Source: Candidatus Collierbacteria bacterium RIFOXYD2_FULL_45_13
GTDB lineage: Bacteria; Patescibacteriota; Microgenomatia; UBA1400; MFAQ01
Length of the DNA: 64,000 nucleotides
Assembly (NCBI GenBank): GCA_001774685.1
Contig: MFAS01000001.1
Location: forward strand, 159,557-223,556
Reading direction: 5' to 3'
Part shown: one piece after another, positions 578 through 44,921 of the stretch
Layout of the letters: each line of letters opens with the position of its first letter
How positions within the stretch are numbered: position 1 is the stretch's first letter
The notes under the pieces: model-generated
Databases searched by the model: none
The model's input: only the letters and a program-made list of their open reading frames with translations
What the model was told of the DNA's origin: nothing
Position numbers and translations under genes: made by a program

Positions 578-623
578 CGTCATTGCGAGTTTCGGTACCC
601 CGAACCGTGGCAATCTCACTCCA
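578..623. repeat. structured dispersed repeat, copy 1 (GTCATTGCGAG - short hairpin - GTGGCAATCTCACTCCA)
   Basis: Both flanks are near-identical to 31991..32033 and similar to 43353..43390. It contains an internal hairpin ttcgg-tacc-ccgaa. Confidence 0.5.
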
Positions 624-672: not shown

Positions 673-1085
673 GGGGACGACAGGAATCGATGGAATGGTA
701 CGTTTACAGACGCAAGCCTCCTTTGGTAATAGGAGTCAAACAGACCAAAACACAACTGTCAATAAAGAAGACAAGTTACTTGGTTTCGTGGCTAGTGGAG
801 TCAAATCCCTCGCTAACGAAATCAAATCTTTCACTCCCGTTTACGCTTTTGCCTAAACTGTAGTTTAAAGACGTCTTGAGAGCCGGCGGATCCCGGGCTA
901 CTTTCAGGGCGAAAAAATACCGGATTGAATGCTTCAAGTTTGATTTAGGCTTGAAGACTAACTTTTTCTAAATCGACCATAAAGTGTTCTTGTTTGCCTG
1001 AAGCTTTATGGAAAATCGGCAATCTAAGCTTGTAGACTCTGTAATCAGATTACTCCAGACGAGGGTTCGACTCCCTCCGTCTCCA
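673..1085 (+). ncRNA. ssrA: tmRNA (ssrA)
   Basis: - The 5' end GGGGACGACAGGAATCGATGG matches the tmRNA 5' consensus.
- The 3' end carries a T-arm GAGGGTTCGACTCCCTC followed by CGTCTCC-A, which pairs with the 5' GGGGACG as a 7-bp acceptor stem.
- CCA is not encoded.
- An internal tag frame GCT AAC GAA ... TAA at 812..856 encodes ANEIKSFTPVYAFA*, with the typical A-N-D/E start and hydrophobic A-x-A end.
- The gene lies directly downstream of smpB. Confidence 0.8.
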
Positions 1086-1121
1086 CAAACAAAAAGTCCA
1101 CCCTCGCGGGAGAGTTTTTGG

Positions 1122-31860: not shown

Positions 31861-32250
31861 ATGCCACTTCCGGCCATAAACCGGCTTCCCTTACGCAAAG
31901 AAAGAGATCGTCTCACCCGTGAAGGAAAATCTTTCCACACCCGCCACTTCACCCTCGTCACCGCCCCTATCCCCGTCATCCCGATCTCTTCGTCATTGCG
32001 AGGAGGCAAAGCCGACGTGGCAATCTCACTCCATCAAGTTCCCCGCTTCTCCATCCTGCTCTCCAAAAAAACCGCCCGTCTCGCCGTCGACCGCAATCAA
32101 ATCAAGCGTGTCACCTCTGCTCTCCTGGCCGAACTCCACTCCCAATTCCCTTCAGCCGACTACCTGGTCATCCCCAAACGTTCCGTCCTCAACACCCCTC
32201 ACTCAGATCTTCTCTCCGACCTCTCCTCCCTCCTCCCCAAGCTCAAATAG
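31861..32250 (+). CDS. rnpA: RNase P protein component, with an in-frame 22-aa insertion derived from a dispersed repeat
   Basis: Position immediately after rpmH. ...FTLVTAPIP[VIPISSSLRGGKADVAISLHQV]PRFSILLSKKTARLAVDRNQIKR carries the RnpA signature KKxxxAVxRNxxKR. The bracketed segment is encoded by repeat copy 31991..32033. Confidence 0.7.
   Translation: MPLPAINRLPLRKERDRLTREGKSFHTRHFTLVTAPIPVIPISSSLRGGKADVAISLHQVPRFSILLSKKTARLAVDRNQIKRVTSALLAELHSQFPSADYLVIPKRSVLNTPHSDLLSDLSSLLPKLK
31991..32033. repeat. structured dispersed repeat, copy 2 (inside rnpA coding sequence, in frame)
   Basis: cgtcattgcgag-gaggcaaagccgac-gtggcaatctcactcca. Both flanks are nearly identical to copy 1 at 578..623. 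Confidence 0.5.
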
Positions 32251-41270: not shown

Positions 41271-43343
41271 CTACCACTTTTCAGAGATAAGTAACTTTTG
41301 ATTTGAATACACCTCTTTCCATACCGCTTCCGTTACAAAGGGGACAAAAGGATGAAGCATTACCAAAAATGATTTGAACCCATCCTTTAGAACCTCATCG
41401 CTTATCTTTCCTTGCTTGTTCTCTTCTATCTGCACATCACAGAACCAGTGCCAAAATTCATTATAGACATACTCCGCCGCCAGACCGACCCGGTTCTCCT
41501 CTAGCAGTCTCGTCAATTCCTGCCTTACCTCTTGAATTTTCATCCTAAAATCATCGTCTCGTTCATTGTTTCCTGCCTTAAGTTCTTGAGTTATTGATGT
41601 TTTGAGATCTTGAACATATCGTCCCGCATTCCAAATTTTATTTGCAAAATTTCTCATTCCTCTTACCTTATTTTCTCCGGTGTTACTATCTTGTCCTGCT
41701 GTAGTACTCATCACCAGAGCCATTCTCAGGGAATCTGCTCCATATTTTTCAACCAGCTCCAGGGGGTTAATCACGTTTCCTATACTCTTGCTCATTTTTC
41801 TGCCCTGTTCATCTCTTACCAATCCATGTAAATACACTGTTTTGAATGGGGATTTCCCTGTCATATAAATCCCCAACATCATCATTCTCATTACCCAGAA
41901 GGGGAGAATGTCATAAGCTGTTTCCATGACCGTTGTTGGATAGAAAGCTTCAAAATCACCCGGCTTACCCGTTTCTAATGTGACTACCGGCCACTGGCCG
42001 GAAGAAAACCAGGTATCAAACGTGTCCGTTTCTTGTACCCACCCATCGCCTGGGCTCGTCTCACTCACTACGTAATCATCGTTTTGAGTTTTATACCACA
42101 CCGGCATTCTTATTCCCCAAACAATCTGCCGGCTGATATTCCAGTCTCTTAGGTTTGTCAACCAATGCCGCAGTATCTTATCGTGGCCTGATCCCAAAAT
42201 CACCGTTTCCCCTGAGTCTAATGCTGCAAGCGCTTTGTCGGCCAATGTTTTTACTTTTACAAAAAATTGTTTCATTGGCAGAGGCTCAATTGCTCGATGA
42301 CATCGATAACAAGTACCCACACTGTGCAGGTATGGTTTTGTTTCCAACAAGGCTTCTCCCAAATCACTCGCGACTTTCTCTCTGGCCTCTGCCACACTCA
42401 ATCCTTCATATTTCCCGGCGTTCTTAGTCATCTTGCCGTTGGTCCCAATTATCTGATGATCCCTCACTATTTCATCCATATTCCACCCTTGTCGTACCGC
42501 CACTTCCCAATCATTGTTGTCATGTGCCGGAGTAATTTTTACCGCCCCGGTTCCAAACTCCATATCCACCATTGAGTCTCCGACAATTGGGATCTCTCTA
42601 CCTACCAAAGGCAAGATAACTTTCTGACCGATTAGGTGTTTGTATCTTAAGTCCTCTGGATTAACGGCCACGGCTACATCTCCGAGCATTGTCTCTGGTC
42701 TCGTTGTCGCTACTACTATTTGTCCATAGCGGATCATATACAGCTTGTCTTCTTTGTCCTCATGATCAACTTCCAGCTCGGAATAAGCGGTTCCACATTT
42801 GGTACAGTAATTTACTAGTTTTACACTTCTGTAAACCAATCCTTCTTCATGAAGTTTGAAGAAATTCTTTTTTACCTCTTTCACAATTTCCGGGTCAAGT
42901 GTAAATTTGTATCTACTCCAGTCTGCGCTTGCACCCAATCTCTTCATCTGATCAATGGCGACACCGGAGTTCTCGTGTACATAATCCCAGATCATCTGAT
43001 AAAGGGTTTCTCGGTCAAAATCAAACCTGCTCTTACCCCGTTTTGTCAGTTTCTTTTCAAATACAAACTGGGTTTCGATTCCTGCGTGGTCTGTACCGGG
43101 TAACCAGAGAACAGCCTCACCCTTCATTCGGTGAAATCTGACAAATATATCTTCAATCGTTACAAACATTGCATGCCCCACGTGCAATGGATCGTTAGCG
43201 TTCGGGGGCGGCATGATAATTGTAAAAGTCTTCCGTCCTGTCTTCGCCACGTCGTCTCCGGCTAGAGGAGTAAAGACCCCACTATTCTCCCATTCCGTGT
43301 AGATTTTTGTCTCGCTGTCTTTGTGATTATAATTTTTATCCAT
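41271..43343 (-). CDS. valS: valyl-tRNA synthetase (short form lacking C-terminal coiled-coil)
   Basis: HIGH motif PPPNANDPLHVGHA and KMSKS motif GRKMSKSIGNVI. TWFSSGQWP...FYPTTVMETAYDILPFWVMRMMM is ValS-type. Confidence 0.85.
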   Translation of the reverse strand: MDKNYNHKDSETKIYTEWENSGVFTPLAGDDVAKTGRKTFTIIMPPPNANDPLHVGHAMFVTIEDIFVRFHRMKGEAVLWLPGTDHAGIETQFVFEKKLTKRGKSRFDFDRETLYQMIWDYVHENSGVAIDQMKRLGASADWSRYKFTLDPEIVKEVKKNFFKLHEEGLVYRSVKLVNYCTKCGTAYSELEVDHEDKEDKLYMIRYGQIVVATTRPETMLGDVAVAVNPEDLRYKHLIGQKVILPLVGREIPIVGDSMVDMEFGTGAVKITPAHDNNDWEVAVRQGWNMDEIVRDHQIIGTNGKMTKNAGKYEGLSVAEAREKVASDLGEALLETKPYLHSVGTCYRCHRAIEPLPMKQFFVKVKTLADKALAALDSGETVILGSGHDKILRHWLTNLRDWNISRQIVWGIRMPVWYKTQNDDYVVSETSPGDGWVQETDTFDTWFSSGQWPVVTLETGKPGDFEAFYPTTVMETAYDILPFWVMRMMMLGIYMTGKSPFKTVYLHGLVRDEQGRKMSKSIGNVINPLELVEKYGADSLRMALVMSTTAGQDSNTGENKVRGMRNFANKIWNAGRYVQDLKTSITQELKAGNNERDDDFRMKIQEVRQELTRLLEENRVGLAAEYVYNEFWHWFCDVQIEENKQGKISDEVLKDGFKSFLVMLHPFVPFVTEAVWKEVYSNQKLLISEKW

Positions 43344-43352
43344 AAAAGGTTT

Positions 43353-43390
43353 GTCATTGCGAAGTCATCTAAGGCGACTGTGGCAATCTA
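43353..43390. repeat. structured dispersed repeat, copy 3 (valS 5' leader)
   Basis: gtcattgcgaa-gtcatctaaggcgact-gtggcaatct. Confidence 0.4.
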
Positions 43391-43394
43391 TATA

Positions 43395-43797
43395 AATAAT
43401 ATCTTAAAAAACCCTCATCAATCTCCCTTCTGGGGGACTGACGAGGGCCTTTTGGGCGGTACCACCTCGCATTCTACTCTTTAACTTCTAGCTCACGGTT
43501 GACAACTCCGATCATCGCTCTCTTTGTTAATTCTATCATGGATTTGTTAAAGCCAAAAAAAGTCCGCTGGCTCAGTAGCGGACAATAAATCACCGGATGG
43601 TTCGAGGAGAGGGATGTGTCCTCGCTATCCTGTGTGTTTTAGCTTGAGCCCAATGCTTGAGAGTTTCTGGATCACTAAGTTTCTTTACTCTTCTCTCCAG
43701 ATTCTTCTTCTAACCGTGATTGACGGCCACTCAAACATCCGCACGGAGCCTTCGTAGCCTTACGGCCAGTATTCTCCTCGACGTGACTAACTTCAAG
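43395..43797 (-). promoter_or_regulatory. T-box riboswitch leader of valS
   Basis: On the minus strand:
- GAATGCGAGGTGGTACCGCCC matches the T-box core (AAUUAGGGUGGUACCGCG).
- A terminator hairpin ccctcgtcagtcccccagaagggagattgatgaggg + TTTTTT (43405..43446) follows it.
- The leader is about 400 nt and ORF-free, and runs into the aaRS gene.
- Purine-rich agaagaagaatctggagagaagagtaaag is Stem-I-like. Confidence 0.55.
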
Positions 43798-43803
43798 TCT
43801 CAT

Positions 43804-43832
43804 AGTATACACCAAAGGCTCTAATTTGTCAA
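43804..43832 (-). promoter_or_regulatory. sigma70-type promoter driving the valS T-box leader
   Basis: Minus-strand TTGACA - 17 nt - TATACT. Confidence 0.5.
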
Positions 43833-43850: not shown

Positions 43851-44921
43851 CTACACTACAGCCAGGCTTGGATCTGGCCTTAAATCCATCTCAGATTCTT
43901 CAGGTCGCAGTAAGGCTGAAGCTCCTACCATGGCAGCATTGTCTCCACAATATTTAAGTTCAGGCACGAAGAATGACAATCCAGCCATTGCAATCTCTTG
44001 TCTCAGAGTCTCCCGCAACTTTTTGTTTGCCGCAACTCCGCCGGCCAAAAGGACGCTTTTAGGCTTAAATTGTTCCACTGCTAGCATTGTTTTCTTCACT
44101 AAGACCTCCGACACCGCCTGGCTAAACTCCCTCGCCACCAAATTTCTAAAACTTTCCTCCGATATCTGAGGATTGGCTTCTGAGAACTGACTTCGGTTTT
44201 CCACCATCCTAGCCACCGCGGCTTTTATTCCGGAGAAGCTCATCTCAAGTCTTGGATCATGGATCAATGGTCTGGGAAGCTTGAATAGATTCTTGTATTT
44301 ATCCCATTCTTCATTTGTTACCTTATTCGCTGCCCTATCTATTTCCGGCCCTCCCGGATAGGGGAGTCCGAGAATCCTCGCCGCTTTATCAAATGCTTCT
44401 CCCGCCGCATCATCCCTTGTTCCGCCAATCCATGTCCATTTTGTTAGGCTCTCCATAAGAATTAAATCGGTATGTCCTCCACTTACTACCAAACCTACCG
44501 CCGGCAATTTCGGCACCCCAGTGCTTTGAGTTTTTGAGTTTTCGATTTTTTGAGTTTTTTCAACTATCCAATTCGCCATTACATGCGCCGCCATGTGGTT
44601 GACTTTTAATAGTGGTTTTTTCCACACCCAAGCTAGAACTTTCGCGGATTCGACGCCTACCAGCAGACTCCCCATGAGCCCGGGGCCATAGCTTACCGCC
44701 ACCGCGTCGATATTTTCACCGTTCATTGCCTCAGTTATTACGGGAATAATACTCTTGATCTGTTCCCTAGCCGCCACCTCAGGCACGATACCTCCATATT
44801 TTTCGTGCATTTCCACTGAGCTGGCCACCACACTATTTATTACTCTGACTCCCTCGCCAAAGTTTTCCACTACAGCCGCCGCTGTTTCGTCACACGTGCT
44901 TTCAATCGCCAACATCTTCAT
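43851..44921 (-). CDS. tsaD: tRNA N6-adenosine threonylcarbamoyltransferase TsaD (Kae1/Gcp family)
   Basis: MKMLAIESTCDETAAAV ... LVVSGGHTDL ... GGVAANKKLR. It contains a low-complexity insertion KTQKIENSKTQSTG encoded by the TTGAGTT repeat at 44524..44561. Confidence 0.85.
   Translation of the reverse strand: MKMLAIESTCDETAAAVVENFGEGVRVINSVVASSVEMHEKYGGIVPEVAAREQIKSIIPVITEAMNGENIDAVAVSYGPGLMGSLLVGVESAKVLAWVWKKPLLKVNHMAAHVMANWIVEKTQKIENSKTQSTGVPKLPAVGLVVSGGHTDLILMESLTKWTWIGGTRDDAAGEAFDKAARILGLPYPGGPEIDRAANKVTNEEWDKYKNLFKLPRPLIHDPRLEMSFSGIKAAVARMVENRSQFSEANPQISEESFRNLVAREFSQAVSEVLVKKTMLAVEQFKPKSVLLAGGVAANKKLRETLRQEIAMAGLSFFVPELKYCGDNAAMVGASALLRPEESEMDLRPDPSLAVV

Follow-up and report, generated by a model that had tools for sequence, protein, structure and literature searches.

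What stands in front of the valyl-tRNA synthetase gene in a bacterium of the candidate phyla radiation (CPR)? The question is raised by the minus-strand spacer between tsaD and valS of Candidatus Collierbacteria bacterium RIFOXYD2_FULL_45_13, which was analysed within a stretch of 64 kb, hereafter called the window. An initial annotation had proposed here, from the sequence alone, a canonical T-box riboswitch leader of about 400 nt. The NCBI taxonomy places Collierbacteria in the Microgenomates, a part of the Patescibacteria/CPR, and the comparative data bear out the presence of a T-box-type leader before valS in such a genome. The leader is real and strongly shrunken, covering about 120 nt (43524..43406, minus strand). 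It appears to be a minimal variant, so far unrecorded, of a known riboswitch class, with a function that we infer.

The tsaD-valS spacer and its upstream unit

The spacer is 507 nt long and identical across three assemblies. The flanking genes and the elements lying outside the T-box are the following.

41271..43343, minus strand: valS, the regulated gene (690 aa; NCBIfam valS 785 bits, PRK05729 815 bits)
43353..43388, minus strand: palindromic repeat GATTGCC...GCAATGAC in the 5'UTR of valS, after the terminator and before the ATG
43555..43832, minus strand: orphan transcription unit of ~290 nt (promoter and terminator scan)
43583..43555, minus strand: terminator of the orphan unit, GUCCGCU-N8-AGCGGAC at 43583..43562 and U7 at 43561..43555 (scan)
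43613..43604, minus strand: CCCUCUCCUC tract in the ~240-nt body of the orphan unit (sequence)
43832..43804, minus strand: sigma-70 promoter TTGACA-17-TATACT, 11/12 match (scan)
43851..44921, minus strand: tsaD, the upstream neighbour (NCBIfam TsaD 350 bits)

The TsaD protein is 100% identical to one encoded in the Candidatus Collierbacteria assembly GCA_001000625.1. The ValRS comprises only 690 aa and aligns to positions 2-695 of the 860-position NCBIfam profile; its C-terminal part, about 165 residues, is missing in the window and in the Collierbacteria relatives. The valS ATG is not preceded by any visible Shine-Dalgarno sequence. Only short ORFs (≤57 aa) are found in the spacer, and no homologue of the longest one (57 aa) was found outside the source species.

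All the sequence features named by the initial annotation lie in this spacer, on the minus strand and where they had been placed: the T-box core, the 36-nt hairpin with its U-run and the promoter TTGACA-17-TATACT. Their assembly into one leader could not be maintained. A second intrinsic terminator in the middle of the supposed 400-nt leader and a conserved extended -10 box just downstream had escaped notice. The promoter TTGACA-17-TATACT, taken for that of the T-box, drives a separate unit, which ends at its own terminator (43583..43555) and is absent from the nearest relative. The T-box leader has its own extended -10 promoter at 43538..43530 and measures about 120 nt instead of 400 nt.

A single canonical leader of about 400 nt, starting from the promoter at 43832..43804 and carrying its Stem I within 43800..43560, nevertheless has some points in its favour. 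The 11/12 promoter match is real, and read-through of the internal terminator would yield such a transcript. Moreover, the upstream sequence GUUUGAGUGGCCGUCAAUCACG resembles a short Stem I with GUC-A and matches the Stem I of a related ileS leader (locus L113) at 19 of 22 positions, though this match is not significant (E = 7.4). We consider such a long leader very improbable and reject it, because the intrinsic terminator with U7 (43583..43555) divides the two parts, the sequence downstream of this terminator holds a conserved promoter and a complete Stem I with its K-turn, and in the nearest relative the same T-box follows tsaD immediately, the upstream part being absent. Furthermore, the upstream part is unlike any of 199 related loci and is matched neither by the family HMM nor by the filters-off covariance model.

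The orphan unit thus set apart appears to be independent of the T-box and species-specific: it shows no detectable similarity to any of the 199 loci or to phage DNA, and it always occurs in the same tsaD-valS context. Its interpretation as a second or ancestral T-box was rejected, as searches with nhmmer and the covariance model R1 (filters off) gave no match and the Stem I-like 22-mer is not significant. A protein gene was rejected as well, the 57-aa ORF being matched only in the same species and preceded by no visible ribosome-binding site. The unit belongs to no Rfam family; the best match, RF02278 (21.7 bits, E = 0.056), is due to the CCUCUCCUC tract and the terminator. Its fold z-score is -1.8. 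In the most likely reading, the orphan unit may be a small RNA that is specific to the species and bears a tract resembling an anti-Shine-Dalgarno sequence.

The repeat in the valS 5'UTR belongs to a palindromic family, GATTSC-N(8-38)-GSAATGAC, with three copies in the window (579..615, 31992..32025 and 43353..43388, all minus strand) versus 0.07 expected. It also occurs in the related loci L004 (seven copies), L001, L005, L006, L013, L014 and L102, and is missing from the 5'UTR site in the nearest relative. In L004, L006 and L013, a copy is found inside the apical part of the T-box Stem II. Copies also lie in frame within valS of L004 (4802..4833) and L001 (4805..4836), where they encode RLPRHS(A/V)PRND and correspond to a gap in the ValRS of the window; these in-frame copies resemble the Rickettsia palindromic elements. 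Another observation concerns the tmRNA gene of the window (673..1088, plus strand, 98 bits), which, compared with the Rfam model, contains a large insertion and has a predicted tag peptide of unusual length, 32 residues (VNKEDKLLGFVASGVKSLANEIKSFTPVYAFA).

Architecture and alternative pairing of the leader

The T-box leader itself is composed of the following elements, listed from its promoter to its terminator.

43530..43538, minus strand: extended -10 promoter TGATAGAAT (read from the sequence; conserved in relatives)
43490..43519, minus strand: ultrashort Stem I, 30 nt in total (alignment of 15 leaders, RNAalifold)
43500..43503, minus strand: specifier GUC, a Val codon (43503..43501), and the conserved purine A43500, in the terminal loop of Stem I
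43470..43489, minus strand: single-stranded linker of 20 nt, standing in place of Stem II, the IIA/B pseudoknot and Stem III
43442..43469, minus strand: antiterminator CGAGG-UGGUACC-GCC-CAAAA-GGC-CCUCG (sequence, fold, covariation)
43406..43447, minus strand: intrinsic terminator, a 36-nt hairpin (43447..43412) and U6 (43411..43406) (fold, covariation)

Since the conserved promoter lies at 43538..43530, transcription would start near 43524, giving a leader of about 118 nt up to the U-tract. All 20 related leaders have a TAnAAT hexamer at a distance of 23-37 nt upstream of the specifier; in 13 of these leaders, TG precedes the hexamer. Stem I is built from the C-stem AGC/GCU, a K-turn, the 3-bp helix CGG/CCG and the 9-nt terminal loop AGUUGUCAA. 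The K-turn comprises the loop GAU, the tandem G.A/A.G pairs and U.U, in the order AGC-GAU-GA-U-CGG ... CCG-U-GA-GCU; the kink itself is predicted. A GUN specifier had been expected for valine, and the codon displayed here is GUC. The 3' part of the linker, GAGUAGAAU (43479..43471), is conserved, and the variation among strains and species is concentrated in the 5' part.

The T-box core GAATGCGAGGTGGTACCGCCC occupies 43474..43454 (minus strand). The antiterminator around it consists of helix A1 (CGAGG/CCUCG), the 7-nt bulge UGGUACC (43464..43458) and helix A2 (GCC/GGC) closed by the loop CAAAA. Positions 43447..43442 are common to the antiterminator and the terminator. The alternative pairing that had been anticipated for GGUGGUACCGC is present in the sequence, and both fold energies and covariation speak for it. 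The core of the terminator hairpin is computed at -26.1 kcal/mol versus -8.7 kcal/mol for the antiterminator, and the latter belongs to the minimum-energy fold when the transcript ends before the 3' arm of the terminator. As modelled, these energetics would follow the usual T-box logic, off by default and switched on by a ligand-stabilised antiterminator. The fold z-score of the leader is -4.7.

Related leaders were collected by a ValRS scan of species-representative genomes, which gave 80 loci, nearly all from Patescibacteria, and by a metagenome pattern scan, which added further ones. Upstream of valS, 16 of the scanned loci have GGTGGTACC, in one case as GATGGTACC. These leaders share a common layout, with a TAnAAT -10 box, a K-turn, a short hairpin with the loop NNNGUCA, and the T-box; they end in a terminator, replaced in L019 by a Shine-Dalgarno sequestrator. 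Fifteen Collierbacteria valS leaders were aligned with MAFFT, without structural input, and used for the covariation tests. Both GA dinucleotides of the K-turn, GUCA and UGGUACC are invariant in all 15.

When Stem I, the base of Stem II and the antiterminator are mapped onto this alignment, 92.4% of the cells are paired and 10 pairs changed on both sides; this antiterminator-form pairing was matched by none of 500 shuffles, and slid controls reached 29-52%. With the terminator form in place of the antiterminator, 89.3% of the cells are paired and 14 pairs changed on both sides. Among the individual elements, changes on both sides affect five of the six pairs of the Stem I helix, two A1 pairs and 6 of the 15 terminator pairs, and the antiterminator cells are 100% paired. 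The competition between the two forms can be followed at three columns, 132 (A1), 160 (shared) and 189 (terminator), which covary as C/G/U, A/U/A and U/A/U. RNAalifold, supplied with no structure, predicts Stem I and the terminator.

Comparison of the related leaders reveals a graded series of architectures. The distant Microgenomates loci L030, L032 and L034 retain Stem II, IIA/B and Stem III, and most Collierbacteria leaders retain, of these domains, Stem II alone. In the window, in its strain variant L211, in L098/L203 (GCA_001000965.1) and in L005 (GW2011_GWB1_44_6), Stem II is in turn replaced by a linker of 18-20 nt. The window leader is thus left without the distal platform of Stem I, Stem II, the IIA/B pseudoknot and Stem III. 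No long Stem I with an AG bulge and a distal loop, forming the elbow platform, was found, and the family alignment contains no additional columns for Stem I. Stem II (GGG-AAGAAA...AAGUAGAA-CCC), present in 12 of the 15 family members, was not found with its S-turn in the window: cmsearch deletes 30 of its model positions in R1 and 38 in R2, the whole block being replaced by just 2 nt. IIA/B is seen only in the more distant L030, L032, L034 and L113. Stem III is absent from all 15 family members; in the window, 17 RF00230 model positions are replaced by 1 nt, and the RF00230 alignment shows that the purines flanking the site (AAAGAG..AA) are retained. Likewise, no G.U wobble is found at the bulge-proximal end of A2, where columns 144-155 are G-C in 15 of 15 leaders.

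These losses are reflected in the Rfam search. The window remains unmatched by RF00230 at the gathering score, and a relaxed search of a 601-nt region gives only 13.4 bits (E = 1.5), where 93 would be required, so the term canonical does not apply. The relaxed alignment is reduced to the 2-bp base of Stem I, the purines around Stem III and the T-box, the bulk of Stems I, II and III being deleted. Judged by RF00230 alone, the T-box finding would fail. The initial annotation would have been abandoned if both an RF00230 match and an antiterminator had been wanting; the match is indeed wanting, and the antiterminator exists, so that the proposal of a T-box is not refuted. Since the window and 18 related loci all stay below the gathering score, RF00230 is unusable as a membership test for this short-leader class.

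Homology nevertheless ties the window leader to the T-box family, from which it descends. The fuller Microgenomates leaders, those of valS in L030, L032 and L034 and of ileS in L113, reach 36-44 bits with RF00230 (E = 1e-6 to 2e-4), and these significant but sub-threshold matches span Stem II, IIA/B, Stem III and the T-box. By blastn, the window leader matches the valS leaders of its relatives with E-values of 1e-9 to 1e-43. Finally, the covariance model R2, trained on the 12 Stem II-containing relatives alone, recognises the window leader with a score of 89.1 bits (E ~1e-21); its 38 positions for Stem II are deleted in this match. A T-box core that merely happens to stand beside an ordinary terminator would agree with the insignificant RF00230 score; this explanation is nevertheless negligible in probability, given that the exact core GGTGGTACCGC occurs only once in the 64-kb window, that the homologous family covaries and that the leave-out model reaches 89 bits.

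Specifier codon, conservation and proposed function

The codon displayed in the loop follows the downstream gene. GUC-A is found in all 20 valS leaders examined, and at the same loop position AUC stands before ileS (L113), GAC before aspS (L179), UGG before trpE (L163) and AGC before serS (L140), the last with the bulge UGGC; these four leaders with a short Stem I come from the metagenome scan, and the genes downstream of them were identified with NCBIfam. The bulge UGGU of the window leader predicts a discriminator A73 in its putative ligand, tRNA-Val. Bacterial tRNA-Ser carries G73. The UGGC of the serS leader would fit complementarity between the fourth base of the bulge and the discriminator, which lends the prediction indirect support. 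No tRNA-Val gene was found in the window and 37 loci.

On the grounds of the sequence elements, their alternative pairings, the covariation, the homology with more complete T-boxes and a codon that agrees with the gene downstream, we think that 43538..43406 (minus strand) is probably a miniaturised, transcription-attenuating T-box riboswitch specific for tRNA-Val. As such it would bind the tRNA, discriminate its charge and set the regulatory outcome. Transcription would begin just past the extended -10 box, and the nascent RNA would fold into the K-turn and the 3-bp hairpin, displaying GUC-A in the terminal loop. An uncharged tRNA-Val (anticodon GAC) could then pair with GUC and, through its free 3'-ACCA end, with the bulge UGGU. 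The weak antiterminator would thereby be stabilised by the tRNA, the stronger terminator blocked and valS read by the RNA polymerase. With charged Val-tRNA, the antiterminator would not be stabilised and transcription would stop at the U-tract. Because the platform, the S-turn of Stem II, IIA/B and Stem III are missing, the tRNA would be held by its two ends only, across the 20-nt linker.

An attenuator based on a leader peptide was also considered. The 39-aa ORF at 43593..43474, which contains VV, was rejected for this role because it is not conserved and starts upstream of the T-box promoter.

Conservation of the minimal form points to a function under selection. Its four diverged copies (window, L211, L098 and L005) have an average column identity of 87%. 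With both L098 and L005, the window leader shares 84.6% identity, rising to 92-93% over its 3' half, compared with only 57-78% for the coding DNA next to it. Where strains and species differ, the changes either preserve pairing (43418 A>G, 43417 U>C) or are located in the 5' linker, in the flanks of the loop or in the terminator loop; the codon, the K-turn and the T-box are spared, and the helices stay intact. This pattern suggests that purifying selection acts on the minimal form.

Several observations on individual leaders accompany this comparison. In L211 (1145..1330), which comes from a closely related strain, the minimal T-box is 96% identical to that of the window and is preceded by a different sequence; this scaffold is probably chimeric, since a gap (run of N) joins its T-box to window-type sequence. 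L014 (2814..2950, plus strand) has a valS leader with normal Stem I and Stem II that diverges after GGTGGTACCG to GTCCTTCGTCTAGGCTACGGACCGGCAGACCGTCC..., and its valS starts about 190 nt further downstream; it may represent an insertion or a rearranged expression platform. L163 (1335..1467, plus strand), on an unrelated metagenome contig, is a minimal T-box that precedes trpE (anthranilate synthase), with a K-turn, a loop with UGG-A, a 22-nt linker, the T-box and a terminator, without Stem II; R2 scores it at 64 bits. The valS leader of Candidatus Amesbacteria, L019 (1813..1941, plus strand), has a short Stem I with GUC-A and neither Stem II nor a terminator. The 3' strand of its A1 (CCUUU) is able to pair with AGGAGG just before the ATG, which suggests translational control by the same minimal design.

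The leader might, on the other hand, be a decaying relic, that is, a descendant of a T-box that no longer senses tRNA and acts as a leaky constitutive terminator or is heading for deletion, as in sister lineages. Elements essential in model T-boxes are missing: Stem II and IIA/B are reported to be essential to T-boxes with a truncated Stem I, and Stem III is reported to be indispensable for the discriminator (PMC7583486, PMC10651847). The canonical A2 pair beside the bulge, a G.U wobble that senses the aminoacyl group (PMC7583486), is replaced by G-C. Furthermore, the closest ValRS relatives (L001-L003), and also L009, L018 and L026, have no leader at all, so the leader is dispensable in the clade. 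However, a terminator of -26 kcal/mol before an essential gene should be selected against if nothing relieves it. The terminator, the antiterminator, the K-turn and GUCA are retained in four diverged genomes and are more conserved than the flanking genes, and the helices show pair-preserving changes. Equally minimal leaders stand before valS in Amesbacteria and, with UGG, before trpE on the unrelated contig. Collectively, these points make decay an unlikely explanation, and we retain the miniaturised, tRNA-Val-specific T-box.

A stronger version of the latter is put forward more tentatively, as a serious possibility. The leader could be a working T-box that grips tRNA-Val by the anticodon and the 3'-NCCA only, and thus the smallest natural tRNA-sensing riboswitch. 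It could then be one of a wider CPR class of 'mini T-boxes', found before valS in Collierbacteria and Amesbacteria and before trpE on another contig, a class that would be unseen by Rfam-based annotation.

Relation to known T-boxes

The window leader shares with the class I T-boxes (RF00230; Bacillus subtilis tyrS, glyQS) the UGGN-ACC bulge in an antiterminator competing with an intrinsic terminator, the K-turn at the base of Stem I, the conserved purines 5' of helix A1, and a specifier ending in C, followed by a purine and matching the amino acid of the downstream gene. Class I leaders are 180-300 nt long, with a specifier in an internal loop and a G.U at the base of A2, whereas the window leader, of ~120 nt, presents its specifier in a terminal loop, has G-C at this position and is devoid of the distal platform (AG bulge, distal loop), Stem II, IIA/B and Stem III. 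Since the distal platform is absent, there would be no contact with the tRNA elbow.

The glyQS T-boxes also connect Stem I to the antiterminator through a short single-stranded linker, without Stem II, and act at the transcriptional level. Unlike the window leader, they retain a long Stem I with the elbow platform and Stem III. Stem II is considered dispensable for them on account of their all-G/C codon-anticodon pair, GGC:GCC (PMC7583486), whereas the codon of the window leader is GUC. Structural and single-molecule studies reportedly arrive at the view that T-boxes acting on transcription require a long Stem I (PMC7583486), a truncated Stem I the help of Stem II and IIA/B, and the discriminator Stem III.

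T-box regulation appears, from the leaders compared here, to exist in reduced CPR genomes, namely those of Collierbacteria, Amesbacteria, Chisholmbacteria and other Microgenomates. In the full-text literature, the coverage of which is incomplete, we found no paper on T-boxes in the CPR (candidate phyla radiation, Patescibacteria, Saccharibacteria), and the literature yielded none on T-boxes without both platform and Stem II. TBDB leaves out leaders below 100 nt, and its search for the short class was restricted to Actinobacteria (PMC7778990). CPR T-boxes are missed by current annotation because of these two limits and because the Rfam score of 93 is not reached.

If the leader works, then the platform, Stem II, IIA/B, Stem III and the G.U pair are dispensable for transcriptional, charge-sensitive control, or the missing parts are replaced by something unseen, for instance a K-turn-binding protein. 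A naturally selected leader that lacks these parts while retaining the codon, the K-turn, the T-box bulge and a strong terminator would show what tRNA sensing minimally requires and would also serve as a compact engineering scaffold.

The nearest counterparts of the short Stem I are found in another phylum. Actinobacterial ileS T-boxes with a short or 'ultrashort' Stem I were reportedly described by Sherwood et al. in 2015. Those of Mycobacterium and Nocardia have, like the window leader, a truncated Stem I without platform and a K-turn directly below the specifier, and the fuller relatives L030, L032, L034 and L113 also resemble them in having Stem II with an S-turn, IIA/B and Stem III. The actinobacterial leaders act translationally, by Shine-Dalgarno sequestration, and their tRNA binding depends on Stem II and IIA/B (PMC7583486). 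The window leader differs from them in its transcription terminator, its phylum, its Val specificity and the loss of Stem II, IIA/B and Stem III. In its architecture, it combines the ultrashort Stem I of the actinobacterial translational ileS T-boxes with a transcription terminator, minus Stem II and Stem III.
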